A stretch of 54,287 nucleotides of DNA from Pseudomonadota bacterium (GCA_043806955.1 JAZDGK010000066.1:1-54287); one strand, 5' to 3'; positions 1,899 through 53,347 are shown, numbered from the stretch's first letter. A program made the numbers and translations. The notes: generated by a model from the sequence alone, not told the origin.

Positions 1899-2114
1899 TC
1901 AGGAGCCCAAAATCTCTTTCACCCGGCCGACGATGCCGCCCTCCAGGCGCACCTTGATGCCGTGGGGGTGGCGGGGCGATTTTGTAAGGAGATCCCGGAC
2001 GATCCCTTCCGTGAGGATGCCGCTTCGCTGATCCTCTTTCCGGACCACTCTCACCCGCATGCCGGGTGCGATGTCGGATCGGTTATTGCCGTTCATGAGT
2101 CCGTCCTTTACCAT
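1899..2114 (-). CDS. YwbE family protein (DUF2196)
   Basis: 71 aa. DQRSGILTEGIVRDLLTKSPRHPHGIKVRLEGGIVGRV is the hallmark of this family. Confidence 0.85.
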   Translation of the reverse strand: MVKDGLMNGNNRSDIAPGMRVRVVRKEDQRSGILTEGIVRDLLTKSPRHPHGIKVRLEGGIVGRVKEILGS

Positions 2115-2239
2115 AGATCGCCGTCAAAGCCATCGTTGTTTATTCTTCCCTATACCACATCACGCCCATCTCCGCATGCTCTGGGCGCGAAAAACCCCCG
2201 TCTACCCGATTATGACGTGCCGCGCTCATCGTCTGGCCC

Positions 2240-2975
2240 CTATTCTGATTTCAGCACCTCGCGGATCTGGTCGGCGGCATGGGGATATTCGCGCTCGTCA
2301 GGGTCATAGTTGTGAAGCAGGAAGTCGCGGTAACAGCGTTCGATGACGGGCCTGGAGCGGGTTTTTGTGGTCTCGCACGGAGAACGGCAAATCTGCCGCA
2401 GTGCCAGTCACCGGCCGCCGAGTTCCTCCTCCAGCTCCCTGACGACATCTCCGACGAAATCGTGAAATCCCCAGCCAATGCCGTCGGCCATCTGCTCCAC
2501 TCTCGCCAACCGGTCGCTGAACTGCGGATAAATCCCCCGCGCCTCGCCGCGCAACAGGGCGGCCAGTTCGTCCAGCGCAGCCTCCAGGCTGCTGTAGAAC
2601 CGCTCGTCAATGTCCCCATACTCACGGGTGAATCTAGTGCCGTTCTCCACATAGGTCATCAGCAGTTCCGCCGTACCGGGGATGTTGCCTGTAGCCTTAC
2701 GGTAGTCGCGGACGGCCTTACGCGCCTCTCCCAACTTCAGTTTGCCAAAGCCTCGTGCGGGGAAGAACTGCTCCACGATCTTGCCCCGATACTTTTCCAG
2801 GGCCTCGCCGCCGCACTCTCCGGCCTGACAGCGGGCATGGATGAAGTCCCGGTTCACGCCCGCCGGCAGCTTCGTACAGGTCTTTCACCAAGGCGAGCAG
2901 CGCGGGCTTCTCCCAGGTGGTGAGGTGTTGGCGGACCGCGCTCCAGCCGCCCGGCTTTTTGGTTGCGTTTGTCAT
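2240..2975 (-). pseudogene. DUF6155-like gene broken by two frameshifts
   Basis: Three consecutive minus-strand reading segments make up the gene. The first is MTNATKKPGGWSAVRQHLTTWEKPALLALVKDLYE. The second is NRDFIHARCQ...VVRELEEELGG. The third is RPVIERCYRDFLLHNYDPDEREYPHAADQIREVLKSE, ending with a stop at 2240-2242. The frame changes are near 2875 and 2405. Confidence 0.55.
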
Positions 2976-3655
2976 GGATTGAATCTCCTTGGTTGGACGG
3001 GTTTCAACCGGGGCAATGATTCGGGCGGAACGATCAGGGTGATGCTGCTATAGTGCGTAGTGGTTTTGGGCTTAAGGGGAAAGCCACGCTCGCGGCGGGC
3101 TGTCTCCAAGAACCAATCCACGCGCTTACGAGAAAGGTTCTGCAGTGTGGCCCCGTCACAAGCAGAGGTATCAAACGGCGGGACTCGAAGATCTCCCGAT
3201 TCGTCAAGGTGGGCGACCAGGCTGGCGTACCCCTCGGATGTCAGGGCGCTAAAGTCCTCAATGCGGCGGCGAACCAGTTCCTTGCTGACCTTGCGCACCA
3301 GTTGCTTCATATTGGGTGCGCGCTTCCCTTCATTTGATCCCCAGACATAAACGAGTCGAGTTTTCCCGTGTCGGGTAGCATGGAGATATTCACGCTCCGT
3401 CGCGGAGATACCGTTTTGGTCCTCGTCGCCGTAGTCGTAACCGAAGATGCCAACATAGATGTCGCAACGCTCAACTTCTCCGAGATAGACCTGGTCCGCC
3501 CGGCGGTCCTTAGCAGGGAGTTCCTCAAAGAGAAAGACTTCGGAGATAAATCGGTGCAAAACAGCATCCCCGAGGAGGAAAGCCTTCAAGTCCAGACGAA
3601 TTTGTTTGAATTCCTTCTGGACACTGCTGACGAATATCTTCATTTCACCCTTCAC
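2972..3655 (-). CDS. DUF4062 (TIR-like) domain protein, C-terminally truncated
   Basis: The N-terminus KIFVSSVQKEFKQIRLDL...CDIYVGIFGYDYG is typical of DUF4062. ATLQNLSRKRVDWFLETARRERGFPL looks like the start of an AlbA_2/Schlafen-type domain that then breaks off into low-quality sequence. The stop overlaps the DUF6155 start. Confidence 0.6.
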   Translation of the reverse strand: MKGEMKIFVSSVQKEFKQIRLDLKAFLLGDAVLHRFISEVFLFEELPAKDRRADQVYLGEVERCDIYVGIFGYDYGDEDQNGISATEREYLHATRHGKTRLVYVWGSNEGKRAPNMKQLVRKVSKELVRRRIEDFSALTSEGYASLVAHLDESGDLRVPPFDTSACDGATLQNLSRKRVDWFLETARRERGFPLKPKTTTHYSSITLIVPPESLPRLKPVQPRRFNP

Positions 3656-4517: not shown

Positions 4518-4736
4518 CCGCTGTCCCTCGGCCTGATGTAGATCTTCAATCGGCTACTCCGCCAATTGCTCGGCAGGCACATCATAGACCTACGCGGCGA
4601 ATGGGTCAAGTAATTGTTATTCTGGGGTAAAATACGCTTTCTTGATGTGGCGCTGTGTCTCGACTTCGAAGTTCCCGGAGGAATCACCGAAGTCCGGTTT
4701 TCGAGGGGCAAATGGCGGATCACTATTCTGCGTCTA

Positions 4737-4902
4737 GGAGCCTGTCGGACTTAGGGGATCGTTACGAGGAAGTGGAGGAACGAGACCAGATATTCACGAA
4801 GTTGAGGCGCATAGTGTTGCTATGCAACGAAAATTCGGGGATATTTGGGCCGTTCCCCCCACTTCCGTAGTAGATCACCCCTAAGTCCGACAGGCTCCTA
4901 GG
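4737..4902 (+). repeat. RA family palindromic MITE-like element (intact, 166 bp)
   Basis: 21-bp perfect terminal inverted repeat ggagcctgtcggacttagggg / cccctaagtccgacaggctcc. The whole element folds as a long imperfect hairpin. There are 7 copies in the window. Confidence 0.85.
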
Positions 4903-5107
4903 GTATCACGCAGCTTATGTGGGTTACGTAACAGACAGGAAACAGATTCAGAAACTTGAATCAGTACGAACGAAAAAATACCCATCCCAGGACCGTCCGG
5001 CGCAAAAACCTTGAGGCCGGAAACGCTTAGTGCTATCGTAAAAGCATAATCTAACATTATCCCCTGCTTTCGTTGTTTCCTCCGGACAAAACTCCGGGCA
5101 AAGAACG

Positions 5108-5426
5108 TTAGGGTGCGTTACGAAATAAGTGGTACAAGATTGCGCCGGATTTTGGGCTGTATTCAAGGCTGCTTAAGGGGCGAGCATATGTATCCGTTCA
5201 CCGTTATCCGTTCACCGTTGTCCGTAAGAACCTGAAAAGCCTTTTTTCTCCGAACAGTCAACGGTGATCGTATTCTCCGTTAACTGTCAGGCGTGAGAAG
5301 CCCAAGAAACATCCTTTTCGGTGAACGGTCAACGGTGAACGGTCAACGGATACTAACCCTTAAGCAACGCAGAATACGGCCCAAAAGACTAGCAAGATGT
5401 CACAGTTATTTCGTAACGCATCCTAA
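5108..5426. repeat. RC family element carrying a nested RD element
   Basis: Termini are ttagggtgcgttacgaaataa / ttatttcgtaacgcatcctaa. The arms match the intact copy at 14053-14215. The centre is replaced by RD. Confidence 0.8.
5191..5353. repeat. RD family element nested in RC
   Basis: Ends are gtatccgttcaccgttatccgttcaccgttgtccg ... cggtgaacggtcaacggtgaacggtcaacggatac. Related copies lie at 15491-15640 and 40870-41414. Confidence 0.8.
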
Positions 5427-5449
5427 GTTCAGATCTGTTCAGTGCTGCT

Positions 5450-6584: not shown

Positions 6585-6639
6585 TTTTCCTGTTTTCGTG
6601 CTTTCCTGATTGAATGATTATTTCTTTATCTTTGTGTCT
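6585..6639 (+). repeat. RM short repeat (55 bp)
   Basis: ttttcctgttttcgtgctttcctgattgaatgattatttctttatctttgtgtct. A roughly 90% identical inverted copy lies at 15323-15376. Confidence 0.75.
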
Positions 6640-6703
6640 TTGTGGTTCGGGTTGCGCTATCCTGCAAATCTGCGTTCATCTGCGTCCAATGAATTCCTGC
6701 GTC

Positions 6704-13025: not shown

Positions 13026-13848
13026 ACAAGAGTGTGTCCGAAAACCTCGCGATGTCCGGATAGCTGAACACGGGCCCGTCCTGGCAGACAAATTTTGCGC
13101 CGATCTGGCAATGGCCGCAGTGGGCTGTGCCGCAACGCATATTTCTTTCTAGAGAGACGTAAATGCTTTCCTCTCTGAACCCTTCGCGGACGAGCTGCCT
13201 GGCTGCAAAGCGCATCATGATCTCGGGACCGCACGTGAAGGCTATGCTGTTGGAGGGATTCAGACTGAGCCCTTCCATGTGTTGCGTTACCAGACCGGCC
13301 CGAAGATTCAGATCAGAGTCTGCAAACTCGTCTACGCAGTAAATCGTTTCGAGGGAGTCCGACTCCTGCCAGGCGCGGAGTTCATCATGAAAGATCATGT
13401 CGCGGGGTGTCTTTGCACCGTAAACAAAGACCAGTTTGCCGATTTGGACACGATGTTCGAGACAATAGTGAAGCAGCGATGTCACGGGCGCGAGTCCAAT
13501 ACCCCCCGCTATCAGCAGCACGTCTTTCCCCGCAACTCCTTGAATCGGCCAGCCCCTTCCCAGCGGTCCCCGAAACATGATATTTCCTCCTCTTTCGAGA
13601 CCGGCTATCAATCGAGTAACGTTTCCGACCCTCCGAATGGTATGCGTGAACTCCCGAGCATTCCCGTCAGGGAGGGAACTGCAAGAAATAGCCGCTTCCC
13701 CGACCCCGGGAAGCCCGAGCATATTGAACTGACCGGGGCAGAAATGAAGGGCTTCCCCATCGTCGGGAACAAAGGTATAAGAACTCGTATCCGCTGTTTC
13801 CTGCCGGATATCTGCAAGACGGGCAGTTCGATAGCTGGGATGGTACAT
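13024..13848 (-). CDS. hydrogenase gamma subunit, FAD/NAD(P)-binding oxidoreductase with 2Fe-2S (AsrB/HydG-like)
   Basis: Ferredoxin-reductase-type fold with a C-terminal CGTAHCGHCQIG cluster motif. Confidence 0.85.
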   Translation of the reverse strand: MYHPSYRTARLADIRQETADTSSYTFVPDDGEALHFCPGQFNMLGLPGVGEAAISCSSLPDGNAREFTHTIRRVGNVTRLIAGLERGGNIMFRGPLGRGWPIQGVAGKDVLLIAGGIGLAPVTSLLHYCLEHRVQIGKLVFVYGAKTPRDMIFHDELRAWQESDSLETIYCVDEFADSDLNLRAGLVTQHMEGLSLNPSNSIAFTCGPEIMMRFAARQLVREGFREESIYVSLERNMRCGTAHCGHCQIGAKFVCQDGPVFSYPDIARFSDTLL

Positions 13849-13867
13849 GGTTGTGTCGGAGTCGCTC

Positions 13868-14052
13868 TAAGGGCTTGCTCAGAAATAAACCGGCATTTTA
13901 GGCGCTCAGATTTAGGTCAGATTTGTTCGATCCGAGGCTGCAAAACCGGAGGAACAGTCGTTCTATTTCGAGGATTTTGCAGTTGAGGATCGGACGAAGC
14001 CGGCCTGAAGCTGTGATGCATAAAGAGCCGAGTTATTTCTGAGCAAGCCCTA
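13868..14052. repeat. RB family palindromic MITE-like element (intact, 185 bp)
   Basis: Termini are taagggcttgctcagaaataa / ttatttctgagcaagccctaa. Other copies lie at 39890-40239 and 41860-42034. Confidence 0.85.
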
Positions 14053-14215
14053 ATGATGCGTTACGAAATAACTGTGACATCTTGCTAGTCTTTTGGGCCG
14101 TATTCTGCGTTGCTTAAGGAGTCACATACTTCAGTATGCTCGCCCCTTAAGCAGCCTTGAATACAGCCCAAAATCCGGCGCAATCTTGTGCCACTTATTT
14201 CGTAGCGCATCCTAA
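14053..14215. repeat. RC family element (intact), directly abutting RB
   Basis: tgatgcgttacgaaataa ... ttatttcgtagcgcatcctaa. It is the reverse-oriented homologue of the arms of 5108-5426. Confidence 0.85.
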
Positions 14216-14226
14216 TGATCGTTTTT

Positions 14227-15306: not shown

Positions 15307-15322
15307 GAATACTTCACCCCGG

Positions 15323-15376
15323 AGACACAGAGATAAAGAAATGATCATTCAATCAGGAAATCACGAAAGCAGGAAA
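15323..15376 (-). repeat. RM short repeat in the hydB-like 5' leader
   Basis: Inverted copy of 6585-6639. It creates the spurious MIISLSLCL N-terminal ORF extensions seen at both loci. Confidence 0.75.
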
Positions 15377-15411
15377 CGGAATGAAGACCTTGATAAGGTA
15401 GATTTTTGCTG

Positions 15412-15702
15412 GGAGCCTGTCGGACTTAGGGGATCGTCACGAGGAAGTGGAGGAACGAGACCAAATAATCACGAATTTGAGGCGCATAATAACCGTTCAC
15501 TGTTGACCGTTGACCGTTCACCTGCGAGGTACTTTTTGGGCCTCACGAATCATGGTGGCTGATTCACGGAGAATACTTTCACCGTATGCCAAAAAGAATC
15601 TGGCCATGTTTTGTCGGACAACGGTGAACTGATAACGGTAAACGGATACCGGCCGTTCCCCCACACTTCCGCAGTAGATCACCCCTAAGTCCGACAGGCT
15701 CC
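15412..15702 (+). repeat. RA element interrupted by an RD element
   Basis: Both RA termini are perfect. The central RA segment is replaced by RD (15491-15640). Confidence 0.8.
15491..15640 (-). repeat. RD element nested in RA
   Basis: The reverse complement matches gtatccgtt(c/t)accgttatc...ccgttgtccg of 5191-5353. Confidence 0.75.
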
Positions 15703-15856
15703 TATTTATAGTCTAGTTGAGCATCATTGATATTTCAATTGAAAAGTCATGTAATCCGACGGAGTAGTCAGAACCCGCAACCCATAACCCAACCCCGGGC
15801 ATCATTATTCAATCGGGAACCCTGGAAAACCGATTCACCCTTCACCGAACGTGTCC

Positions 15857-22820: not shown

Positions 22821-22831
22821 GTATCCAGAAA

Positions 22832-23006
22832 ATGCTAGTATACCGTGCATAGGTCAATTCCCAATATCGAATGTCCAATGCTCAATGTCCAACGTCCAAT
22901 GTCCAAGGGACCCTCTCCTGGTTGGAAATTGGTTATTGAGCATTGATCATTGGACATTGATCCTAAGATGCTGGTATCGTGGAAGCCTCTAAGTCGGGCA
23001 GGCTCC
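22832..23006. repeat. RE family element plus RA right-end fragment
   Basis: gtccaatg-rich palindrome homologous to 42597-42744. It ends in ctaagtcgggcaggctcc, which is an RA terminus. Confidence 0.75.
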
Positions 23007-23226
23007 TGGACCGGCAAAGATGGGCGTCTTCATCACGAATCTTTTGTCGGGGTTGAAGAAACTCAAGAAACTCTTGCATTTTGCCGAACATAAGCTATAT
23101 AGAGTTTATAATAGATAAATCAAACAGTTCAACGATGAGATAGGTCCTGGGTGAAACCGGCCCGTCCCATACGTTGACACCAACTCAAAAAGGAAATCGT
23201 CAGATCCGGTTCATCCGGGTAGAATT

Positions 23227-25579: not shown

Positions 25580-25761
25580 AGCCTGTCTGATCTTGTGGTC
25601 CAAATTCTTCTTATTCACCGCCCGCTCACCAGGAGCCTGTCGGACTTACCTGTCTGCGCGACCATTCGTCGCCGGCCGTCCGATTGTTCTTGCTTTCGTA
25701 TCCCTGCAAGAAAAACTCTTCTCGGCGTTCTCCGCGTGCTCGGCGGTAAATACTTTTCTGG

Positions 25762-28294: not shown

Positions 28295-28393
28295 TTCTAA
28301 CGTTCCTTTTCTGTGTAATTTCACTTAGTTATTGGCACAGAGCGAACAGTATAACAGAGTCTCTTTTCCTTTTCAAACCAAAACTGGCCGGAG

Positions 28394-28556
28394 GGTGCAA
28401 GTAGAAGTGGGACTATGGCCGCTTGGAACACTGTTGAATTAAGCCAACGTTGAGAAAACATCCCAGTGGCACAGCCGAGGGTGGCTGTGCTGCATGACCA
28501 TGACCTGAATCTATAAAAGGAGACCTGACATCCAGTCCCACTTATACTTGCACCCT
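28394..28556. repeat. RH family palindromic element
   Basis: TIR ggtgcaagtagaagtgggact / agtcccacttatacttgcacc. The core contains the gtggcacagccg...cggctgtg hairpin. A second copy lies at 40883-41046. Confidence 0.85.
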
Positions 28557-30719: not shown

Positions 30720-31320
30720 TGTTTGAACCGCATGCGCTCAGGGGTCGCAGGAGCCTGTTGCCCGAATTGACTTCCCCTCTCCCCGCGGGGAGAGGAAATC
30801 ATGCCTGCATTCAATAGCCTGCGCCGCACACTCCCGGCGCTTTCCCGCAGGCACGATTTATGTATAGTGGGAAGTGCCAGCCCGAATGCGCCCCCTCCGT
30901 GCCCCCGCACCCGCTTCCGCATGTGGAAACTTTCTTCCATCAAATGAGAATCTAACTACACATTTAATGGAAGTGTATTTCCTAGAATCATCTCCCTATC
31001 CGTCATAACCTTCGGATGCGTCGTGATAATAATCTAACCAGAATCCGGCATACTCGTTGCAAGTGAATACAGGCGTCTGTATGGAACCGGGGAGGGTGCC
31101 CCGCATCGTTCGGGACTGTTTGTTCATACGGGATTCGGTATTCGGAGATATTACTCCGGTACGATCGTTTCCGGCCGACAGCAATTGCAGAACGAAGGAC
31201 TTTGCGGGAATCAGGATCAAAGGCATTTCCTCCCGGATAATGCGGGCAACTTCTCCTCACAGGTTTTCATCATCAATCGGACGAATCAAAGAGGTTTGTT
31301 GGGCGCATAAGACGGCGCCA

Positions 31321-31389
31321 GGAGCCCGTCGGGCTTGGGGATCGTCACCAGGGATGGGCGATAGATGATGTCTAAGTCTGACAGGCTCC
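31321..31389. repeat. RA element, internally deleted (69 bp)
   Basis: ggagcccgtcgggcttggggatcgtcacc...tctaagtctgacaggctcc retains only the terminal stems. Confidence 0.7.
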
Positions 31390-31491
31390 TGGACTATTCC
31401 GAAAGAAGGGGGGGTGATCATCGTACAGGCTGCTATTTGTTGACAACGACTTGGAGATAAATTTTAAAATGCAAAAAGGAAAGGAATAATT

Positions 31492-34400
31492 ATGAGTAGA
31501 GCGCAAATCGTATACTATCTGAAGTTTCTGCTGGTTTTGCTCGTTACCGTTCTAATGGGTGCGGGTGCAGGGGGTTCTTCCGTTCTTGCAGCCAATCTCG
31601 ACGTTCCCGGTGATTTCAGCACCATTCAGGCCGCCGTTGACGCCTCCGTGGATGGAGACGTGGTAATCGTTGCACCGGGGACGTACACCGAGAACATCGA
31701 TTTTCTCGGAAAAGCGATCGCCGTGAGAAGCGCTCAGCCGAACAATCCGGCCATTGCAGATGCCACCGTGATTGACGGGGGCGGAGTGGGAGCGGCAGTT
31801 ACTTTCAAAGGCGGCGAGGGAGTCAGCTCGGTATTGAACGGGCTCACCATAGAAAACGGAAATGACGGCTGCGGTGGCGGGATTTCCTGCCAGCAGTCTT
31901 CACCTTCAATTATGAATTGCCGCATTAGGCAGAATCGAGGTCAGCACGGAGGCGGCATCGGCTGCCTGTCCGGGGCAGCCCCTGTTATCGTAAATTGCCT
32001 GATATACTCCAATGAAGCTGACCTGACCGGGGGGGGCATATACGCGGATGCAGACTCCTGTCCGGTTATCACTAACTGCGTCATAGCCGATAATGACACG
32101 TCGTTATTCGGCGGCGGAGGCCTTTATTGCGTCGAAGCCATTGTTACTAACTGCATTGTCTGGGGAAATTACCCGAATGGCCTCTTCGCCTCCGAAGATG
32201 CGGTTATGTTCTCGGATATTCAGGAAAGCAAGGGTGGGTCGGGCAATATCAGCGCGGACCCCGTTTTTGTGAATGCGGCTGCCGGAGACTATCACGTGGC
32301 CGAAGACTCTCCCTGCATCGATGCGGGCAGCAATGAGGCTCCCGGTCTCCCGGCTACCGACAAGGACGGTAATCCTCGTATTCTCAACGTAGTCGTAGAC
32401 ATGGGTGCATTTGAAGCGCCTGAACCGGAAATCGATCCGGACGTTATCACGGTTACCATCCAGGCCGGAGATCCGGAGGCGGCTGAACCGGATAAAGGTC
32501 CGGTCAACACCGGGAAGTTCACCGTTGTCCGTGAAGGAAACATCAACTCCGAATTGATCGTGAAATATAAGGTGACCGGTACGGCAACTGCCGGCGCCGA
32601 CTACACCCAACTGTCAGGGACTGTGACCATCCCGGCTAAAAAAACCGAGGCGGACATTATTGTCACCCCCCTCCAGGACCAGGACTATGAGGGTGACGAG
32701 ACGGTAGTAGTCACTCTTACAACGAGCGTTTCTTACACCATAGGTTCACCTGGAAATGCAGAGGTCGTAATCAAAGACAACGACCGTCCGACCATAACTA
32801 TTCAGACTACCGACGCTGAAGCGGCCGAGCCCGGCAATGGTCCCGTCAATACGGGAAAATTCACTCTGACGCGTACCGGGAAGACGGACGCCGAGTTCGC
32901 CGTAACCATAAAGGTCGCCGGCACGGCGATAAATGGGACCGATTACAGCGAAGTCGCAGACACGGTAACCTTTCCGGCAAAAAAGGCTGATGCCGTCATT
33001 ATCATAACCCCTTCCCAGGATACGGATTTCGAAGGCGACGAAACAGTAGTTGTCTCGCTTGTAAGCAACCCTTCGTACATTATCGGTTCGCCAAGCAGTG
33101 GGACTGTGACGATTAAGGATAATGACCGGCCGGACGTCAGCATCGTGGCCACGGACTCTGATGCCGCTGAACCGTCAAAGGGTCCGGTTAATACAGGGCG
33201 ATTTACCGTCAGCCGTACGGGAATTACGAGTTCCGAGCTTGTTGTGACCTACAAGGTCTCCGGAACAGCCGCAGCGGGTACCGACTATGCCGAGCTGGCC
33301 GGTTCCGTAACTATTCCGGCCAAGAAAGCCGAAGCGACCATCACGGTAACCCCGCTCCACGATGCGGATTTTGAAGGCGACGAAACGGTAGTAGTGACAC
33401 TTACAAGCAGCGTGTCTTATACTATCGCATCACCAAGCACTGATACGGTAACGATCAAAGACAATGATCTCGCCGTCGTAACCCTCGCGGCCACGGACGC
33501 TGATGCGGCCGAACCGGGTACCGGACCGGTCAATACCGGCAAGTTTACGGTCTATCGCACGGGAAACACCACCTCTGATCTGTCTGTAACGTACAAGGTT
33601 GCAGGAACGGCTACGGCTGGAACCGATTATACTGAATTGACCGGTTCTGTAACCATACCGGCCAAAAAAACCGAGGCCGTGTTCACCGTGACACCTCTCC
33701 ATGATGTTGATTCTGAAGCGAACGAGACTGTTGTCGCTACGCTGACCGTGAGCGCGGCGTACGCGATCGGCGCCCCAAGCTCCGGTATGGTAGTAATCAA
33801 AGATAACGACCTGCCGGTGGTAACGGTCAAAGCCACTGATCCCGAAGCGGCTGAGCCTTTCAGAGGACCGGTTAACACCGGGAAATTTACCGTCTATCGC
33901 ACCGGAATTACGGCGACTGCGGTGACGGTGACTTACAAAGTTGCAGGAACGGCTACGGCTGGAACCGATTATGCCGAACTGGTGGGCTCCGTAGTCATAC
34001 CGCCCAGAAAGACCGACGCGATCATCGTAGTCACCCCTCTCAACGATCTCGATTGTGAAGGGAACGAGACGGTGGTTCTTACACTCACCGTTGCCGAGGG
34101 GTATACTGTCGGCACGCCGAGCAGCGATACCGTAACTATCATAGATAATGACATCCCGACTGTGACTGTTGCGGCCACAGATCCGGAAGCCTCCGAGCCG
34201 AGAGTGGGACCGCTCAACACCGGCAAATTCACGGTCACCCGCAACACCACGGGTCCGGCGATGACTGTAAACTACACCGTTGCCGGTTCTGCGGCAGCCG
34301 GGGCTGATTATACAGAGTTGGCCGGTTCTGTAACTATTCCTGCCGGCAAGAGCGAGATCAGTGTTACCGTATCTCCTCTTGCTGACACAGAAGTGGAAGG

Positions 34401-35529
34401 GGATGAAACGGTAATCCTCAATCTCTCCGCCGGCGGTGGATATGTCGTCGGTAAGCCCGGCAGTGCAACAGTGGTAATCAAGGACGAAGACATGCCGAGC
34501 AAGCCGGTGATCACCGTTAAGGCTACAGATCCGGACGCGGCTGAGCCCTTCCGTGGCCCGGTCAACACCGGAAAATTCACCGTCTATCGCGCCGGGGATG
34601 CCGCGGCCGAGTTGACCGTAACTTACAAAGTCACGGGAACGGCTACAGGTGGAACCGATTATACCGAATTGACCGGTTCTGTAACCATACCGGCCAAAAA
34701 GACCGAAGCTCTTGTCACCATAACTCCTCTCCATGATCTCGACTTTGAAGGAGACGAGACTGTGGTGATTACCCTCTCTGCCGGTGTTGGGTATACGGTC
34801 GGTGTGCCGGCGAGCGACACGGTCGTGATCAAAGACGACGATCTACCGGCCGTGACCGTTGTGGCTACCGATCCGGATGCGGCTGAGCCCTCCCATGGTC
34901 CTGTAAATACAGGAAAGTTTACCGTCTATAGGACCGGGAATACCAGTGCTGAACTGATAGTGAGTTATAAAGTTGCCGGTACCGCCGGCGCCGGAACGGA
35001 TTACACGGCATTGACCGGTACTGTAACAATACCAGCCAAAAAGGCCGAAGCCGTCATCACTGTGACACCTCTCCATGATCTGGATTTCGAGGGACCGGAA
35101 AGCGTGATAGTGACTCTCGCCGTCGGCGCCGGCTACGTTGTCGGCAAGCCAAACAGTGATATCGTTGTGATTAATGACAACGACCTGCCCGCCGTCAGTG
35201 TGACTGCCACAGACCCTGCCGCGGCTGAGCCGTTCAGGGGGCCTGTTGATACGGGACGATTCACGATCACTCGGACAGGGAATGTATCCCTCCCGCTCAT
35301 CGTCCAGTACAAAGTAACGGGTACGGCAACCGCCGGAACCGATTATGCACAACCAAGTGGTTCGGTAACGATACCGGCGCGACAGACTTCCGCACAAGTG
35401 GTCATAACGCCGCTGAATGACACGGAACCCGAGAAGGACGAGACCGTGATACTTGAAATCCTCCCAGACCAGGCGTACGCTATCGGTACGCCAAAAAATG
35501 CCACGGTCACAATCATGGATAATGACTGA
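31492..35529 (+). CDS. secreted protein: parallel beta-helix N-domain plus 9 tandem Calx-beta domains
   Basis: Signal peptide, then beta-helix turns (NCRI/NCLI/NCVI/NCIV). After that come nine repeats of about 114 aa, each with AAEP..GPVNTGKFTV.R.G...Y.V.GTA..G.DY...G.VTIPA.K......TPL.D.D.EGDETVV.TL. The protein ends in DND directly before the stop. Confidence 0.9.
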   Translation: MSRAQIVYYLKFLLVLLVTVLMGAGAGGSSVLAANLDVPGDFSTIQAAVDASVDGDVVIVAPGTYTENIDFLGKAIAVRSAQPNNPAIADATVIDGGGVGAAVTFKGGEGVSSVLNGLTIENGNDGCGGGISCQQSSPSIMNCRIRQNRGQHGGGIGCLSGAAPVIVNCLIYSNEADLTGGGIYADADSCPVITNCVIADNDTSLFGGGGLYCVEAIVTNCIVWGNYPNGLFASEDAVMFSDIQESKGGSGNISADPVFVNAAAGDYHVAEDSPCIDAGSNEAPGLPATDKDGNPRILNVVVDMGAFEAPEPEIDPDVITVTIQAGDPEAAEPDKGPVNTGKFTVVREGNINSELIVKYKVTGTATAGADYTQLSGTVTIPAKKTEADIIVTPLQDQDYEGDETVVVTLTTSVSYTIGSPGNAEVVIKDNDRPTITIQTTDAEAAEPGNGPVNTGKFTLTRTGKTDAEFAVTIKVAGTAINGTDYSEVADTVTFPAKKADAVIIITPSQDTDFEGDETVVVSLVSNPSYIIGSPSSGTVTIKDNDRPDVSIVATDSDAAEPSKGPVNTGRFTVSRTGITSSELVVTYKVSGTAAAGTDYAELAGSVTIPAKKAEATITVTPLHDADFEGDETVVVTLTSSVSYTIASPSTDTVTIKDNDLAVVTLAATDADAAEPGTGPVNTGKFTVYRTGNTTSDLSVTYKVAGTATAGTDYTELTGSVTIPAKKTEAVFTVTPLHDVDSEANETVVATLTVSAAYAIGAPSSGMVVIKDNDLPVVTVKATDPEAAEPFRGPVNTGKFTVYRTGITATAVTVTYKVAGTATAGTDYAELVGSVVIPPRKTDAIIVVTPLNDLDCEGNETVVLTLTVAEGYTVGTPSSDTVTIIDNDIPTVTVAATDPEASEPRVGPLNTGKFTVTRNTTGPAMTVNYTVAGSAAAGADYTELAGSVTIPAGKSEISVTVSPLADTEVEGDETVILNLSAGGGYVVGKPGSATVVIKDEDMPSKPVITVKATDPDAAEPFRGPVNTGKFTVYRAGDAAAELTVTYKVTGTATGGTDYTELTGSVTIPAKKTEALVTITPLHDLDFEGDETVVITLSAGVGYTVGVPASDTVVIKDDDLPAVTVVATDPDAAEPSHGPVNTGKFTVYRTGNTSAELIVSYKVAGTAGAGTDYTALTGTVTIPAKKAEAVITVTPLHDLDFEGPESVIVTLAVGAGYVVGKPNSDIVVINDNDLPAVSVTATDPAAAEPFRGPVDTGRFTITRTGNVSLPLIVQYKVTGTATAGTDYAQPSGSVTIPARQTSAQVVITPLNDTEPEKDETVILEILPDQAYAIGTPKNATVTIMDND
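32440..35526 (+). repeat. coding tandem repeat, 9 units of about 342 bp
   Basis: Periodicity is seen in the translated Calx-beta units and in the recurring DNA strings (for example ccggtcaacaccgg[ga]aa[ag]ttcac). Confidence 0.85.
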
Positions 35530-38529: not shown

Positions 38530-38748
38530 TCAATGGCATGTGCTGCACGACTTGCTCGAACAGCTTGAGCAGCCGCTCGAACTCGCTGTGCTTGTAAACT
38601 TGCTTCCGCTCTTGAACGCACAGGCCGACATCAGTCTTTCCAGATGAGTGCCGTGACACTTCGGGCAGACTACGGTATCCGACTTTCCAAATACCAGTCT
38701 TTCGAAGTCTGCGCCGCAGTCACAGCAGTGAAATTCAAAAATGGGCAT
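38530..38748 (-). CDS. FmdB-family zinc-ribbon protein
   Basis: MPIFEFHCCDCG...CPKCHG followed by a Ser/Cys-rich tail. The longer ORF to 38907 was rejected because it reads through repeats. Confidence 0.75.
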   Translation of the reverse strand: MPIFEFHCCDCGADFERLVFGKSDTVVCPKCHGTHLERLMSACAFKSGSKFTSTASSSGCSSCSSKSCSTCH

Positions 38749-38875
38749 TTTCCCCTTTTCTCCTTTTTTCGTGACACGGGTTACGTGCGTTTCACAGCCG
38801 AGGGCGGCTGTGCCACACATTCCGCACTCCGTTGTCCCCGCGTCACCGCGTCTCCATGTCTCCGCGTCCCTCTTC

Positions 38876-39862
38876 TCATTCCGCACTCCGCACTCCGCAT
38901 TCCGCACTATCTCTGATTCCCAGCTCTTCCATTATCGCTGCGGCAAGCAGCGGCACCATTATCTCGTGATGGCCGACAAGACTGTAACCCCTGCCGCCTT
39001 CTTTCGTTGGCCGTGAGACAACGTTTGTCATCGGACGATAATGACGTATGAAATCCATGTTTACAGCGCAAAAATCCCTGACGGTGTGTCCCAGATTCCG
39101 GGCAAGACTCAGTGCTTTCAAGAAGACCTCCGGCAATATAACCGCAGAACCGATATTGAAAAAGACTCCGCCCTCCAGCATGGAAACCAGGCTGCAAAGC
39201 ACTCGGAAATCATGGAGGCTCGTCTTTCCTAAAGCTGAACCGTCTGCTTTCGGATGCATATGAATAATATCGGTGCCCAAAGCGACATGAACAGTAACGG
39301 GAATGGAGAGTCCGGCTGCCGTGCCGAGCAGACTCAAATGCTTATATGGCAGCCCGCTCACCATGATCTGCTCGCCCACGGATTCTCCCAGGCCGATATC
39401 CTTGTCAGCCCCTGTCGCCACGGCATCGTTTATGAAGGCGGCAGTCTCCTCGGCCATGCCAAAGTCTCCGGAACCCAGCACAGCACTGACGTCTTCCGAT
39501 GTCCGCGCAACCATCGCCACTTCGACATCATGGATAACGCAGGCGCCGTTCATCGCTATGGCCGAGATTATTCCGTTTTCCATTAATGAGATCAGGACAG
39601 GGTTCAATCCCACTTTGATGACATGAGCGCCCATGGCCAGAATGACGGGCCTTTTGTTTCGAACAGAAGAGGCTACCTCGTTAACGATTGCACGCAAATC
39701 ATTCCCGGCAAGAATGGAAGGAAGCCCCTGAAGAAATCCGGCAAAGCTCTTCCCGGCAAAGATTGGCTTCCCGAAGTTCTCCTGCGAGACCTTGCTCTGT
39801 CTTTCTGTGAGGCTGTAAGTCTTCAGCTTTCCGACATCAATCGGACCGGGTTTTGATTTCAT
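38876..39862 (-). CDS. deoxyhypusine synthase-like family protein
   Basis: GAHVIKVGLNPVLISLMENGIISAIAMNGACVIHDVEVA and the overall Rossmann layout resemble bacterial DHS-like proteins. The last roughly 12 codons are encoded by a heptamer array. Confidence 0.55.
   Translation of the reverse strand: MKSKPGPIDVGKLKTYSLTERQSKVSQENFGKPIFAGKSFAGFLQGLPSILAGNDLRAIVNEVASSVRNKRPVILAMGAHVIKVGLNPVLISLMENGIISAIAMNGACVIHDVEVAMVARTSEDVSAVLGSGDFGMAEETAAFINDAVATGADKDIGLGESVGEQIMVSGLPYKHLSLLGTAAGLSIPVTVHVALGTDIIHMHPKADGSALGKTSLHDFRVLCSLVSMLEGGVFFNIGSAVILPEVFLKALSLARNLGHTVRDFCAVNMDFIRHYRPMTNVVSRPTKEGGRGYSLVGHHEIMVPLLAAAIMEELGIRDSAECGVRSAE
38878..38907 (-). repeat. heptamer array (ccgcact/ccgcatt type) inside the 3' end of the DHS-like ORF
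   Basis: attccgcactccgcactccgcattccgcac translates on the minus strand as SAECGVRSAE. Confidence 0.8.
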
Positions 39863-39889: not shown

Positions 39890-40239
39890 CTAAGGGCTTG
39901 CTCAGAAATAAATTGGCATTTTAGGCGTTCAGATTTAGGTCGGATTTGTTCGATCCGAGGCTGCAAAACCAGAGGAGCCTGTCGGACTTACGATGATCTA
40001 CTGCGGAAAGTGGGATGACGGCCCAAATATCCCCGAATTTTCGTTGCATAGCAACACTATGCGCCTCAACTTCGTGAATATTTGGTCTCGTCCTCCACTT
40101 CCCTCGCGACGATCTCCTAAGTCCGACAGGCTCCTTGGAATAGTCGTTCTATTTCGAGAATTTTGCAGTTGAGGATCGGACGAAGCCGGCCTGAAGCCGG
40201 GATGCATAAAAAGCCAAGTTATTTCTGAGCATGCCCTAA
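39890..40239. repeat. RB element carrying a nested RA element
   Basis: Both RB arms are intact. RA is inserted at the hairpin apex. The right terminus supplies the gmhA stop codon. Confidence 0.85.
39974..40139 (-). repeat. RA element nested in RB
   Basis: Perfect ggagcctgtcggactta / taagtccgacaggctcc termini, 166 bp. Confidence 0.85.
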
Positions 40240-40826
40240 TGCGGGCCTTGAAAGAGAATATGATCCACCAGTTCACAAAGCACATGGCCGCAAAAACCAT
40301 GCGCCTCCTGGATACGGGGGACCTTGATGGAAGAAACAATAAGTGGAATATCCACAATTTGAGCCACCTTCCCACCGTCTCTGCCGGTTAGAACAACCGT
40401 TTTTATTTCAATCCCTTTTGCTGTTTCCAGAGCCTTGATCACATTGGGTGAATTCCCGCTTGTAGTAATGCCCAGGACAACGTCGCCCCTGCGCCCAAGG
40501 GCCTTAACTTGCTTGCTGAAAACATCTTCAAAAGAATAATCATTGGCTATACTGGTCAGGATGGAAGTATCGGTTGTCAGAGCTACGGCTGGAAGTGGTT
40601 CTCTTTCTATCAGGAAACGGTTGACAAATTCTGCGGCAATATGTTGGGCATCGGCAGCACTCCCTCCATTCCCGAACAGAAGCAGCTTTCCCCCACTCCG
40701 GAAAGTCTCCGCAATGATCATTGCCGTTTCTTTAATCCGCTGCAGATTATCCAGTATGAATTGCCTCTTGACGCTTATCGAGTCTTCCAGGCTTTTTTCA
40801 ATGATTTGGTCCATTTTTCTCTCCAT
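40236..40826 (-). CDS. gmhA: D-sedoheptulose-7-phosphate isomerase (SIS domain)
   Basis: LLLFGNGGSAADAQHIAAEF and ITTSGNSPNV motifs, 196 aa. Confidence 0.85.
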   Translation of the reverse strand: MERKMDQIIEKSLEDSISVKRQFILDNLQRIKETAMIIAETFRSGGKLLLFGNGGSAADAQHIAAEFVNRFLIEREPLPAVALTTDTSILTSIANDYSFEDVFSKQVKALGRRGDVVLGITTSGNSPNVIKALETAKGIEIKTVVLTGRDGGKVAQIVDIPLIVSSIKVPRIQEAHGFCGHVLCELVDHILFQGPH

Positions 40827-40882
40827 TCAGCCGTTTCACAATAATATTTTTGTTAAAGGGTGTCAATGTGTAACCGTTCACC

Positions 40883-41046
40883 GGGGTGCAAGTAGAAGTG
40901 GGACTATGGCCGTTTGGAACACTGTTGAATCAAGCCAATGTTGAGAAAACATCCCATGTGGCACAGTCGCCTCGGCTGTGCTACATGACCATGACCTGAA
41001 TGTATAAAAGGGGACCTGACATCCAGTCCCACTTCTGCTTGCACCC
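40883..41046. repeat. RH element nested in the left end of RD
   Basis: ggggtgcaagtagaagtgggact ... agtcccacttctgcttgcaccc. Confidence 0.85.
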
Positions 41047-41153
41047 CCGTTCACCGTTGTCCGTAAAAACTCGCAAGAATCGAGTCCATACAACCTCAAA
41101 AGCGTCTTCTTGGCAAAGAGTCACGGTGATCGCGTATTCCCTTTCGGTCTCTG

Positions 41154-41316
41154 GGAGCCTGTCGGACTTAGGGTGATCTACTGCGGAAAGTGGAGGGAAC
41201 GGCCCAAATATCCCCGACTTTGTCGTTACATAGCAACACTATGCGCCTCAAATTCGTGAATATTTGGCCTCGTTCCTCCACTTCCTCGTGACGATCCCCT
41301 AAGTCCGACAAACTCC
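41154..41316 (-). repeat. RA element nested in RD
   Basis: ggagcctgtcggacttaggg ... ccctaagtccgacaaactcc. Confidence 0.85.
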
Positions 41317-41468
41317 TGGTCCCCGATGCCAAGAGACGAGGAACCGGAGACCACGAGCCAAATATTACCTGAAAAGCGCGAGGAACGTCTTTTCGGTCAA
41401 CGGTGAACGGATACGTCAATGTCAATACCTTGCTCAAATTCACCGCCTGTATTCGGTACACTGAGATG

Positions 41469-41633
41469 TTAAGGGTCTGTCACGGAATAAGTTGCGCAAT
41501 TCTGAGTGCTGAGGCACCCGTCTGGCAAGGCGCGATGAGGGCGCATACCGGGAGTATGCAACCGACGAGCAACGCAGCCGGACGGGATGGATCGGCGCTC
41601 AGAATGCCCAAGTTATTTCGTGACAGGCCCTAA
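41469..41633. repeat. RC-like element (distinct subfamily)
   Basis: Termini are ttaagggtctgtcacggaataa / ttatttcgtgacaggccctaa. The interior is unrelated to RC. Confidence 0.7.
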
Positions 41634-41859
41634 GAGTCTGTTTCGAATTTCGAATCTCGTCCGGCTGTATAGGTCTGCATTCTCTCAATTTGCGGCCATC
41701 TGACCTTCCCGTCCCCGGACGGGAAGGACAGATGGTATTCCTTATAAAAATAATCAAAGAATCGTAGTGGGTCTCTTTTTTTGTTGAAATTATATTCATT
41801 ATATGCTATCGATCCCGCAACTGTAGCATGTATGCGGGATTCCGGGCGCAACAACAGAC

Positions 41860-42034
41860 TGAGGGCTTGCTCAGAAATAAATTGGCATTTCAGGCGCTCA
41901 GATTTAGGTCGGATTTGTTCGATCCGAGACTGCAAAACCGGAGGAATAGTCGTTCTATTTCGAGGATTTTGCAGTTGAGGATCGGACGAATCTGGGATGC
42001 ATAAAGAGCCAAGTTATTTCTGAGCAAGCCATAA
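41860..42034. repeat. RB element (intact)
   Basis: tgagggcttgctcagaaataa ... ttatttctgagcaagccataa. Confidence 0.85.
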
Positions 42035-42094
42035 GGCAACAATGGGTACAAACAAAGGGCTTTAACCTAAATCCAAAAAGGGGGATAAATAGCT

Positions 42095-42367
42095 ATGACA
42101 AAGGCGGAACTGGTAGCAAAAGTAGCTGATGATGTTGGACTGAAAAAGGTGGAAGCGGAAAAGACGATTAATTCTCTCCTAGGCACCCTGAAAGAAGTGC
42201 TGAAGAAGGAAGGGAGAATGGCCCTGGCTGGTTTTGGCACGTTTAGCGTGACAAAACGTAAGGCCAGAACGGGACGTAATCCTCAGACCGGGCAGCCGAT
42301 CAAGATCAAAGCCGGCAAGGCCATAAAGTTCAAAGCCGGCAAGGCGTTGAAGGCTTTCATAAAATAG
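42095..42367 (+). CDS. hup: HU family DNA-binding protein
   Basis: MTKAELV...GFGTFSVTKRKARTGRNPQTGQPIKI, 90 aa. Confidence 0.95.
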   Translation: MTKAELVAKVADDVGLKKVEAEKTINSLLGTLKEVLKKEGRMALAGFGTFSVTKRKARTGRNPQTGQPIKIKAGKAIKFKAGKALKAFIK

Positions 42368-42389
42368 CGGACTGTTATTGATGTTGAGA

Positions 42390-42427
42390 AAAAGGCAGGC
42401 ATTTTCTCAATGTCCTGCCTTTTTCTT
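42390..42427 (+). terminator. rho-independent terminator of hup
   Basis: Stem aaggcagg/cctgcctt (42392-99 / 42414-21) followed by a T-rich run. Confidence 0.7.
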
Positions 42428-42433
42428 TGGCTG

Positions 42434-42771
42434 GGAGTCTGTCGGAATTATGGGGATCGTCACGAGGAAGTGGAGGAACGAGGCCAAATATTCACGAATT
42501 TGAGGCGCATAGTGTTGCTATGCAACGAGAATTCGGGGATACTTGGGCCGTTCCCCCCCACTTTCCGCCGTAGATCATCCCTAATGGAGCCGGAACATGC
42601 TAATATACCGTGCATAGGTCAATGTCCAATATCGAATGCTCAATGTCCAAGGTCCAAGGTATTTGCTCCTGATTGGAAATTGGTTATTGAACATTGGACA
42701 TTGGACATTGATCCTAAAACGGTATATTGGAAACTTCTAAGTCCCTAAGTCCGACAGACTCCTTGACAAGG
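42434..42771 (+). repeat. RA element carrying a nested RE element near its right end
   Basis: ggagtctgtcggaatta...core...gtagatcatccctaa[insert]ctaagtccgacagactcc. Confidence 0.8.
42597..42744. repeat. RE element nested in RA
   Basis: atgctaatataccgtgcataggtcaatgtccaatatcgaatg...cattgatcctaaaacggtatattgg is homologous to 22832-22995. Confidence 0.75.
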
Positions 42772-45527: not shown

Positions 45528-45607
45528 AGAGCCTCCGGCAAAACTCTGTTTCGTGTTTCGAGTTAAGAAAACCCAGAACGCTCAACCAGAAAAATGAAAG
45601 GGTTTCT

Positions 45608-46436: not shown

Positions 46437-46577
46437 TAGACGGACCCTGATAGGCGGGGTTTTCTAACCCCGCCGAGAATGGATGGTTCCGTTGCGGGGC
46501 GGCCCTGGAAAGGGCCGCCTATCCGAAGGGCTGGAAAGCCTGCGTATTATGGGTGCTTTATTCTGTGGATCTGTACT
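46437..46577. repeat. RI element lacking its left end
   Basis: It shares ataggcggggttttctaaccccgcc...ggccgcctatcc...tgtggatctgtact with 28843-29022. It starts immediately after the mobA stop. Confidence 0.75.
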
Positions 46578-46626
46578 CAGCAATGAGTCGGCATAAAGGG
46601 TCAATCTGTTTCTGGGCATGCCCTGA

Positions 46627-46833
46627 GAGGGTGTCTAAAAACTCTCAATTTTGTTCAAGGTCAAGGAGGGCGAGGATTCTAACACTTGAAGGACTGAAGG
46701 CTGGGATGCTGGGAGGCGAGAAGGCTGAGAGGCAATCCCAGCGGGTCAGCTTCCCAGCTTCCTGGCCTTCTGAGGATTAGAATTCGAGCCTGACGCAGAG
46801 ATTGGGCAAAAGGGAGAGTTTTTACACACCCTC
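46627..46833. repeat. RF element (207 bp)
   Basis: Same TIR as 20041-20270, with TGA on both flanks. Confidence 0.85.
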
Positions 46834-46970
46834 TGAGAACGAAGTTGTTCCTAAAAGTACATAGCGAACTCACCAGGCAGTGTTCTTTTTGCCACATAGT
46901 AAACCACAGGGTCTCGCCGTCGGAAAGCACAATTCACCTCAAAAAAGCTGAATTTCAATGGATTGATAGA

Positions 46971-50254: not shown

Positions 50255-50494
50255 TTGTTCGCCGTTTACAAAAACAAGCGCCTTTCGGGTTCTCACGGAC
50301 AACAGCAAACCGATAACAGCGGACGGTCGGACCCAAGCTGGCGCCATATGTGGCACAGCCGCCCCCGGCTGTGAAATCACGCCCCGGACCACAGCCGAGG
50401 GCGGCTGTGCCACATGCATAGCTCGCCAGAACAGGCTTAATTCAACAGCATTGACGGTCGGACCCGAAGGGGAAAAAGTTGCGGAGCGCCTGAG

Positions 50495-51085: not shown

Positions 51086-51309
51086 ATCAAGCCCGCCTGC
51101 GCTCCTGAGTCTTTGCCCCTCAGAATGGCTTGAATGTAGCACAGCCGCCCCCGGCTGTGGCTCCGTCATAATCCGTCCTTCGGGGTTAAACCATCCGGAA
51201 TTGTCCTTGACCTCGCCATACTATACATGAAAACAGCGAGGAGCCTAATAATCCTTGCGCGCCACTTCAAATGGCGCAATACGGCATATCGCGCCATCAC
51301 GAGGAGAAC

Positions 51310-53059: not shown

Positions 53060-53154
53060 TAATGGAGGGGATTTTTCGGCCCTTTGCCTCGACCGAAGCT
53101 CACGACGGATTTCGATTTTTACTGAAAATCGTTTGCTCGTAAGGACCAATTAAT

Positions 53155-53310
53155 GATGACTTCGTAAAAAGTCAGAAAGTACCACCTTTTGTCATTCCGG
53201 CCCCGTATCAAGTACGGGGTAAACTTCAGCCGGAATCCAGTCTATTCAACTGGTTACTGAGGATCTGGACTCCGGTTTTCACCGGAGTGACGACCTTTTA
53301 CGAGACCATC
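53155..53310 (-). repeat. RG element with aattaa flanks
   Basis: Inverted copy of 19801-19933 with a 23-bp extra hairpin. It is flanked by aattaa at 53148-53153 and 53311-53316. Confidence 0.85.
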
Positions 53311-53347
53311 AATTAACAGGTTGGAGTAGAAAGGCAAAAAAGCCTTT

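Follow-up and report, generated by a model that had tools for sequence, protein, structure and literature searches.

Small palindromic non-autonomous elements that are dense in intergenic DNA, and sometimes nested, are known as Chunjie in Geobacter uraniireducens and Nezha in cyanobacteria. Transposable elements of the miniature inverted-repeat type (MITEs) derived from IS1182-family elements have been described in Methanosarcina acetivorans, where they measure 160 and 169 bp, with inverted repeats of 25-26 bp and a 4-bp direct repeat (PMC3852290); full-length insertion sequences (ISs) of this family include ISPse1, of 1,653 bp with inverted repeats of 16/16 and a 4-bp direct repeat (PMC3281130), and ISPsy36, of 1,666 bp with the palindromic 4-bp target GGCC (PMC8027508). 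MITEs, nested MITEs and IS1182-derived MITEs are thus all already known. Here we examined positions 39,890 to 42,771 of a contig from a Pseudomonadota bacterium (GCA_043806955.1 JAZDGK010000066.1:1-54287; the whole 54,287-nucleotide stretch is called the window below), a region for which an initial annotation had proposed a nest of palindromic MITE-like elements of the families RA, RB, RC-like, RD, RE and RH. The analysis confirmed that the region is a pile-up of small non-coding, hairpin-shaped MITE remnants, lying side by side and inside one another, and it very probably represents an intergenic landing zone of several unrelated MITE families mobilized in trans. The phenomenon as such is already known, and the nest, dense yet otherwise essentially ordinary, goes somewhat beyond the routine in the spread of RA across phyla, the MITE load of the genome and apex insertions without target duplication.

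All nine elements that the initial annotation had placed between a DHS-like gene and rnc were recovered where it had put them by self-BLAST of the window, with E values from 1e-17 to 1e-55. Over the whole contig, with one protein-coding repeat set aside, the same comparison revealed approximately 25 repeat units of at least 10 families, totaling approximately 4.9 kb (9% of the contig and approximately 35% of its non-coding DNA), and all units are intergenic. Nearly all are imperfect palindromes with 62-77% identity to their own reverse complement over the full length; they are 136-243 bp long, within the size range of MITEs, and the ORFs (open reading frames) that overlap them are short, unsupported frames. 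Terminal inverted repeats, tabulated for RA, RB, RC, RC-like, RD, RH and four more families, are conserved among copies. Target duplications were found, namely CTAG/CTAG and CTGG/CTGG for RA, TAA/TAA for RB, RC and RC-like, and GTCAATGT twice for RD, while three nested insertions have none. Copies are spread from 4.7 to 53.3 kb, and their unrelated flanks indicate dispersed elements rather than a segmental duplication; conserved termini are present both in the window and in other genomes. Altogether, each check proposed with the initial annotation that was run came out in favor of mobile MITE-like elements.

The window was then compared with L117 (labels of this form denote sequences from outside the window), an 18.9-kb contig from a relative with an 84% identical Era, which is collinear with positions 35.7-54.2 kb at approximately 84% nucleotide identity; the next relatives of the window's Era are metagenome-assembled genomes (MAGs) of Thermodesulfobacteriota and Desulfovibrionales. 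Both empty and filled states, which the initial annotation had suggested looking for, were observed between the two at no fewer than five sites, one of them base-precise. The hup-rnc spacer reads ...TTTGGC-TT-GACAAGG... in L117 and ...TTTGGCTG[GGAGTC...RA+RE...GACTCC]TTGACAAGG... in the window; the RA+RE composite is precisely absent from L117, with CTTG there versus CTGG[...]CTTG in the window, which corresponds to a 2-bp duplication, or to a 4-bp duplication (CTTG) with one change allowed. The second RB copy is also absent, with a single TAA in L117 versus TGA[RB]TAA in the window, as are the RB1(RA) composite of the DHS-like/gmhA spacer, RD with its RH and RA, the RC-like element and an element pair at 46443-46837. 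Conversely, L117 carries a full RA where the window has another family (53145-53312) and, in two of the same spacers, short remnants of RA that lack the apex. These differences indicate that elements moved after the two lineages split and that the same spacers were struck repeatedly.

The initial annotation could not name the mobilizing family, and this can now be done for RA alone, the commonest of the elements, through a terminus shared with IS1182 elements. Full-length ISs of the IS1182 family in three unrelated phyla end in the same terminus as RA, CTAG-[G/C]AGCCTGTCGGACTTAGG. In one scan of species-representative genomes, the terminal 16-mer of RA was detected at at least 116 loci in many phyla, nearly all of which extend to the 22-mer CTAG[G/C]AGCCTGTCGGACTTAGG; this extension argues that they are not chance matches of the kind a bare 16-mer gives. 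The spacing between inverted termini at the scanned loci has its mode at 160-169 nt, and 38 full-length copies elsewhere align end to end with the RA of the window at 62-80% identity. Copies in other genomes mostly have CTAG on either side, beyond which the flanks are unrelated, and the terminus was also found in Verrucomicrobiota, Lentisphaerae and Acidobacteriota. An RA-type terminus and CTAG flanks likewise bound other interiors, of 32-356 bp, as expected if the ends alone matter for mobilization.

Transposase genes were found behind this terminus. In a member of the Lentisphaerae (L030), an IS of approximately 1,650 bp with CTAG on both sides contains an ORF of 475 amino acids that scores 305 bits against the NCBIfam model NF033551, "IS1182 family transposase" (cutoff, 270 bits), and in a member of the Vicinamibacterales (L023), an RA-type terminus lies 68 nt upstream of an ORF of 449 amino acids scoring 304 bits against the same model; both proteins have the domains DUF772 and DDE_Tnp_1. 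In a gammaproteobacterial MAG (L032), the C terminus of a transposase is followed by an RA-type terminus, and this end is multi-copy, recurring at nine contig ends of a genome that also carries RA MITEs; co-occurrence of IS and MITE was thus seen in a genome other than that of the window (JBOIEG01). The 22-nt terminus in L030, L023 and L032 is identical or nearly identical to that of RA. No pair of RA termini at IS-like spacing was found among the at least 116 loci at up to 4 mismatches, the reason being greater divergence at the right end of the L030 IS, and a BLAST search of a plasmid collection gave no match to RA or RB. The idea that RA is an IS630/mariner-type MITE, which came from a TA duplication inside CTAG, was dropped, since the ORFs behind the terminus encode IS1182-family transposases. 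On the evidence of its ends, RA is best described as a putative IS1182-type MITE of approximately 165 bp that targets CTAG-like tetranucleotides, and the published sizes and direct repeats of IS1182 ISs and MITEs fit this assignment; the other families can be tentatively assigned by their target duplications only.

Related short forms were observed in other genomes. Six loci (L041, L047, L077, L087, L108 and L116) contain an element type of approximately 205 nt in which each end is a mini-palindrome of approximately 40 nt, made up of an RA-type terminus and its inverse, and isolated terminus-terminus hairpins of 32-40 nt were also found. These elements and hairpins are the minimal form of the RA MITE superfamily.

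Within the window, the intact reference copy of RA lies outside the nest (4734..4901, minus strand) with CTAG on each side. The nest holds three copies. The copy at 39975..40133 (plus strand) sits at the apex of an RB element between the 4-mers AGAG and CTTG, without a target duplication, and by self-BLAST is approximately 90% identical to the copies at 4734 and 41155. The copy at 41155..41315 (plus strand) sits in the middle of RD and has a perfect 4-bp duplication, CTGG, at 41151-41154 and 41316-41319. The third copy (42435..42761, minus strand) carries RE and is flanked by CTGG (42431-42434) and CTTG (42762-42765). A further copy, outside the nest at 15409..15704 (plus strand), has RD (approximately 15489-15650) in place of approximately 32 nt of its apex. 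The 17-mer terminus of RA occurs 14 times in the window at up to 3 mismatches, versus 0.13 expected, and RA folded as single-stranded DNA reaches -49.1 kcal/mol (z = -10.7 versus shuffles). The 4-mer flanks form perfect pairs in two copies (CTAG at 4734 and CTGG in RD) and are unequal in four. The target duplication of RA can be read as 4 bp or as the central 2 bp, two readings that the CTAG palindrome makes indistinguishable. Two further RA pieces were overlooked by self-BLAST: a mini-RA of approximately 70 nt at 31319-31393, an apex-deleted variant flanked by CCAG and CTGG, and a solo left RA-type terminus at 25630-25652.

A second class of elements is flanked by TAA. The terminus pattern GGG-N5-7-GAAATAA-N-TTG is common to the three copies of RB, the two copies of RC and the RC-like element, and TAA flanks were found in 6 of 6 of these elements, with TGA or TAG in two decayed cases. 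In the nest, the first RB copy (39894..40236, plus strand; terminus GGGCTTGCTCAGAAATAA) has TAA at 39891-39893 and 40237-40239 and an apex interrupted by RA; the palindromic RC-like element (41473..41630, plus strand; terminus GGGTCTGTCACGGAATAAGTTG) has TAA at either side; and the intact second RB copy (41863..42031, plus strand) is flanked by TGA and TAA. Outside the nest, an RC at 5103..5430 (plus strand), flanked by TAG and TAA, has RD (5190-5355) in place of approximately 15 nt of its apex, as judged against the intact RC at 14053-14223. RE, itself a palindrome, lies at approximately 42585..42741 (plus strand) in the TAA of the right terminus of RA, between direct repeats of TCCCTAA (42578-42584 and 42742-42748), minimally TAA, and probably belongs to the same TAA-targeting class as RB, RC and RC-like. 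The position of RE is explained by the conserved RA terminus, which contains CTAAG, i.e., a TAA target. A second RE copy, at 22825-23011, likewise ends in an RA-type terminus. An alternative view of RE as the variant interior of an RA-type element is disfavored, though not closed, by the 7-bp direct repeat and by a gammaproteobacterial genome (L049) in which an unrelated element independently interrupts RA at CCTAA|G, the same position as RE. Some subgroups of the IS5 family, like PIF/Harbinger-Tourist elements, typically make duplications of 3 bp (TAA/TNA), and the length of the target duplication alone would place RB and RC there. The terminus of RB gave a single match in a viral scan, within coding sequence and judged spurious, and 22 matches in a metagenome scan, three of them MITE-like with TAA or TAG flanks and none with a transposase.

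Insertion of these elements can rewrite the ends of genes. The stop codon of gmhA, TAG at 40236-40238 on the minus strand, consists of the last base of RB and two bases of its TAA duplication, and the gmhA product ends in ...FQGPH* in the window versus ...FQSSPQTL* in L117, whose own gmhA stop codon (approximately 4621-4630) lies in sequence flanking an RA-like remnant. Stop codons are present within the CTAG and TAA targets, which may explain why several elements abut gene ends, as at Era (element at 45529), an MFS gene (element at 53145) and an ORF of 406 amino acids (element at 22812). Elsewhere in the window, RB (13867-14053) and RC (14053-14223) have one TAA in common, and a degenerate inverted RC terminus lies at 13839-13866, on the other side of this RB, which may have been inserted into an RC terminus or mini-palindrome.

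RD appears to fall into a third class. The RD composite of the nest (40870..41414, plus strand) has the termini GTAACCGTTCACCG... and ...CGGTGAACGGATAC, with CCGTTNN heptamer repeats, and is flanked by GTCAATGT at 40862-40869 and 41415-41422, where L117 has a single GTCAATGT(CAAT). This 8-bp repeat surrounds one of the three RD copies, the intergenic one, where the motif is tandem; no duplication accompanies the remaining two copies. RH (40884..41046, plus strand) lies between the terminal heptamer repeats of RD and has the terminus GGGTGCAAGTAGAAGTGGGACT and the apex hairpin GTGGCACAG-N-CTGTGC; by self-BLAST it is 91% identical to 28393-28555. IS66, ISL3 and IS256-type elements typically duplicate 8 bp, and IS66 ends start with GTAA. 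Members of IS66 are recorded with direct repeats of 8 bp (PMC3281130). The family of RD is thus suggested by the length of its target duplication alone. A viral scan with the RD heptamer motif gave nothing but short hairpins in which the motif is similar and chance matches in coding sequence. In that scan, four IMG/VR viral contigs (L121, L122, L126 and L128) share an identical hairpin of approximately 50 nt with the heptamer motif, TTATCCGTTCACCGTTGTCCG...CGGTGAACGGTCAACGGTGAAC, and a fifth viral contig (L127) has a related heptamer array.

The window also contains a small GC-rich hairpin family of 24-30 nt that resembles repetitive extragenic palindromic (REP) sequences, GTGGCACAGCCG-N5-GGCTGTG, with 10 strand-matches versus 0.02 expected. 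Its copies lie at 28466-28493, 38789-38816, 40958-40985, 50350-50413 (an inverted pair) and 51136-51163. Two of them form the apex of the two RH elements, and one falls inside an ORF, the longest called at 38530-38907, where it lies upstream of the Zn-ribbon domain.

We next considered how the elements came to lie within one another. The nesting that the initial annotation had reported outside the nest was seen again, with RD (5190-5355) in RC (5103-5430) and RD (approximately 15489-15650) in RA (15409-15704), and its reciprocity, RA in RD and RD in RA, is real. The RB apex junction that it quoted is exact as well: AAAACCGGA|GGAATAG is present in both intact copies, and the filled copy reads AAAACCAGA[RA]TTGGAATAG. 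The proposed preference for the apex of the host hairpin held for 4 of 6 nested insertions (relative position, 0.45-0.55) and failed for RH in RD and RE in RA, which lie near an end. The perfect CTGG duplication of the RA in RD indicates that this RA was inserted after RD, and the RA that hosts RD at 15489 is 94-96% identical to the RA at 4734 and is among the youngest RA copies, which indicates that RD was inserted after that RA had arrived. Together, these two cases make the overlapping periods of mobility that had been proposed the simplest reading, unless composites moved as units.

The arms of RA co-vary over their full length across phyla, with double changes in 34 of 47 predicted pairs and 90.5% paired cells, versus 74% in shuffles and 31-45% when the partner was slid. 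G:T wobble cells (63) are approximately as frequent as A:C cells (58) in the alignment, which argues for a strand-symmetric constraint on a DNA inverted repeat rather than a strand-specific one on RNA. Selection for competence in transposition may lie behind the covariation, or else the two arms may evolve in concert.

The absence of a transposase from the contig, noted in the initial annotation, was borne out. Pfam scans of the window ORFs, taken together with precomputed Pfam annotation of L117, detected no transposase domain (six hypothetical ORFs are without any Pfam match), a Y1 transposase domain was likewise not detected in the scanned ORFs, and tblastn with IS1182 transposases found no homologue in the window, L117 or L118. 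This points to mobilization in trans, and the classes of duplication suggest that at least three transposition systems fed the nest in this way, an IS1182-type system for RA and at least two others. In the mechanism that we propose, an intergenic landing zone would gather non-autonomous, hairpin-shaped DNA transposons of several unrelated families, on which transposases from other parts of the genome, or ones that it once possessed, would act. For RA, an IS1182 transposase (an IS5-related DDE enzyme) of this organism would recognize the 18-22-bp terminal inverted repeat [G/C]AGCCTGTCGGACTTAGG and insert the element at CTAG-like tetranucleotides, duplicating 4 bp or the central 2 bp; RB, RC, RC-like and probably RE would make up a second class, with TAA as both the target and the duplicated sequence, and RD a third with an 8-bp duplication. 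The elements appear to bear one another's target motifs, such as the CTAAG of the RA terminus, and to tolerate disruption, which would permit insertion into one another both ways. Mid-hairpin insertions without duplication might arise by insertion into breaks at hairpin tips.

Several observations weigh against mobilization of unrelated MITE families in trans as the full account. The contig encodes no transposase of any kind, so that a cognate IS1182 element in this organism is an assumption. No autonomous partner was found for RB or RC in shallow viral, metagenome and plasmid searches with RB, nor was any found for RD. Four of the six RA copies in the window have CTGG on the left and a differing right flank (CTAG, CTTG or CTAT), a pattern that fits poorly with a simple 4-bp duplication that later decayed at random. 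A target duplication is missing from three of the four mid-hairpin insertions (RA in RB, RD in RA and RD in RC), and the two RD insertions were accompanied by loss of the host apex, approximately 32 nt of RA and approximately 15 nt of RC, which is not canonical transposition. Finally, covariation along the full arms exceeds the constraint that a MITE needs if its termini alone are recognized.

Some of these features would be accounted for if part of the nesting followed a non-canonical route, in which long DNA palindromes extrude hairpins or cruciforms whose tips are cleaved, the break then taking up excised MITEs or transposase-bound ends; such a route would complement canonical transposition for the nested events, not replace it. 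It agrees with the central position of four of the six nested insertions, the three cases without duplication and the host apex bases replaced in the RD events, as well as with the seeming fragility of the palindrome center, since both L117 and other genomes commonly carry RA variants of 70-147 nt that have lost the apex, with one in the window. Insertion of DDE-type ISs into DNA breaks without target duplication has been reported experimentally (bioRxiv 10.1101/2024.06.02.596822). The data suggest that the palindrome center is fragile and that some nesting occurred by insertion into a break, as judged from three old events. However, these three are all that there are, the copies involved are 71-96% identical, so that decayed duplications or later deletions are possible, the RA in RD is central yet perfectly duplicated, and hairpin cleavage is hypothetical for this organism; we regard this route as a possible but doubtful contributor. 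A broader proposal is that long palindromic MITEs are self-reinforcing landing pads, whose tips break in vivo and capture further elements without target duplication, and that the complementarity of the RA arms along their full length is no passive relic but is kept up actively in the DNA across phyla, either through selection for competence in transposition or through intramolecular repair. If true, the first part would account for nesting in mid-hairpin, for apex bases being lost and for nests growing, although we consider the two parts together unlikely.

The remaining explanations would replace transposition by DDE enzymes altogether. Palindromic, intergenic and clustered elements might be REP or bacterial interspersed mosaic element (BIME)-like sequences spread on single-stranded DNA by a Y1/HUH REP-associated tyrosine transposase (RAYT), a notion to which the duplication-free insertions in potentially single-stranded hairpin loops and the genuine REP-like hairpins of the window (GTGGCACAGCCG-N5-GGCTGTG) lend some color. 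Yet the elements are 160-240 bp long, not 20-40 bp, no Y1 domain was found in the scanned ORFs, the terminus and CTAG flanks of RA are those of IS1182 DDE elements, and the TAA duplications of RB and RC and the CTGG duplication of the RA in RD are present; the notion, already contradicted for RA and for RB/RC, is very improbable. The covariation of the RA hairpin, in its double changes and in its excess of paired cells over both controls, would also be expected if RA and its companions were genes for structured non-coding RNAs, kept for the function of the RNA hairpin. Equal frequencies of G:T and A:C cells, with both strands equally paired, are instead the signature of a DNA inverted repeat, no Rfam match reached the gathering score over the window (only sub-threshold matches to miRNA-precursor hairpins were seen), copies lie in either orientation relative to neighboring genes, and their presence differs between close relatives, so we attach scarcely any credence to an RNA role. 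Local segmental duplication and rearrangement, finally, could be suspected from the several copies within a few kilobases at 39.9-42.8 kb, but the dispersal of copies from 4.7 to 53.3 kb, the sharp family-specific boundaries with flanking duplications and unrelated flanks, the presence of RA in many phyla and the base-precise empty sites in L117 refute such an origin, whose probability we put close to nil. Mobilization in trans of several MITE families remains the reading that we favor.

Other features of the contig lie apart from the nest. A 3-kb internal DNA repeat block (32451-35526) was rejected as part of the elements, being a Calx-beta repeat protein gene unrelated to MITEs; the protein, encoded at 31492-35529, has 1,345 amino acids, with a beta-helix region and nine Calx-beta domains. 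A non-palindromic 61-nt repeat occurs in inverted orientation at 6586-6646 and 15316-15376 (88.5% identity), the latter copy overlapping the 5' end of a 4Fe-4S protein ORF by 33 nt. At positions 2001-3000, where two hypothetical ORFs without a Pfam match lie and overlap each other (1755-2309 and 2279-2923), the G+C content rises to 0.605, versus approximately 0.51 for the contig; a DUF4062 gene and a MazG-like gene follow, and this stretch may be a foreign or defense-related islet.

The nest belongs to an uncultivated, Thermodesulfobacteriota-like lineage with an unusually heavy and diverse MITE load, approximately one-third of the non-coding DNA on the contig. Such repeats break assemblies, many RA matches in other MAGs lying exactly at contig ends, and they make spurious ORFs and can rewrite gene ends, as with the gmhA stop codon supplied by RB. 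Through the link to IS1182-family transposases, an enzyme can be named for a family of MITEs whose copies in Gamma- and Betaproteobacteria, Nitrospirales and Deltaproteobacteria reach 80% identity, and the RA terminus could serve as a useful marker of IS1182 transfer across phyla. Mid-hairpin insertions without duplication and strand-symmetric covariation offer small hints on how bacteria handle palindromic DNA.

Compared with known systems, RA is closest to the ISMac2-derived MITEs of M. acetivorans (PMC3852290): in size (160 and 169 bp versus approximately 161-168 bp for RA), in long terminal inverted repeats (25-26 bp versus approximately 22 bp conserved in RA), in having a direct repeat (4 bp versus 4 bp or the central 2 bp for RA), and in being non-coding and multi-copy, with ends common to IS1182-family ISs. 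RA differs from them in its host domain and terminal sequence, and in forming a full-length imperfect palindrome with co-varying arms that is found in many bacterial phyla at 62-80% identity. The L030 element is like ISPse1 and ISPsy36 in its length of approximately 1,650 bp, its single transposase above the NCBIfam IS1182 cutoff and its palindromic tetranucleotide flanks (CTAG), whereas RA has no transposase and targets CTAG or CTNG rather than GGCC. RB, RC and RC-like, which are short, with termini that start with GGG and 3-bp TAA flanks, presumably resemble IS5-related or Tourist-type PIF/Harbinger MITEs, a likeness by target duplication only, for which no autonomous partner was found. REP/BIME sequences with their RAYTs are similarly intergenic, palindromic and clustered, but REPs measure 20-40 nt, have no target duplication and are linked to Y1 enzymes, whereas terminal repeats and duplications of the DDE type are found in RA and RB/RC. 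The nest is unlike Chunjie and Nezha in its sequences and presumed transposase families, and in the interleaving, within a single spacer region of 2.9 kb, of at least three duplication classes.

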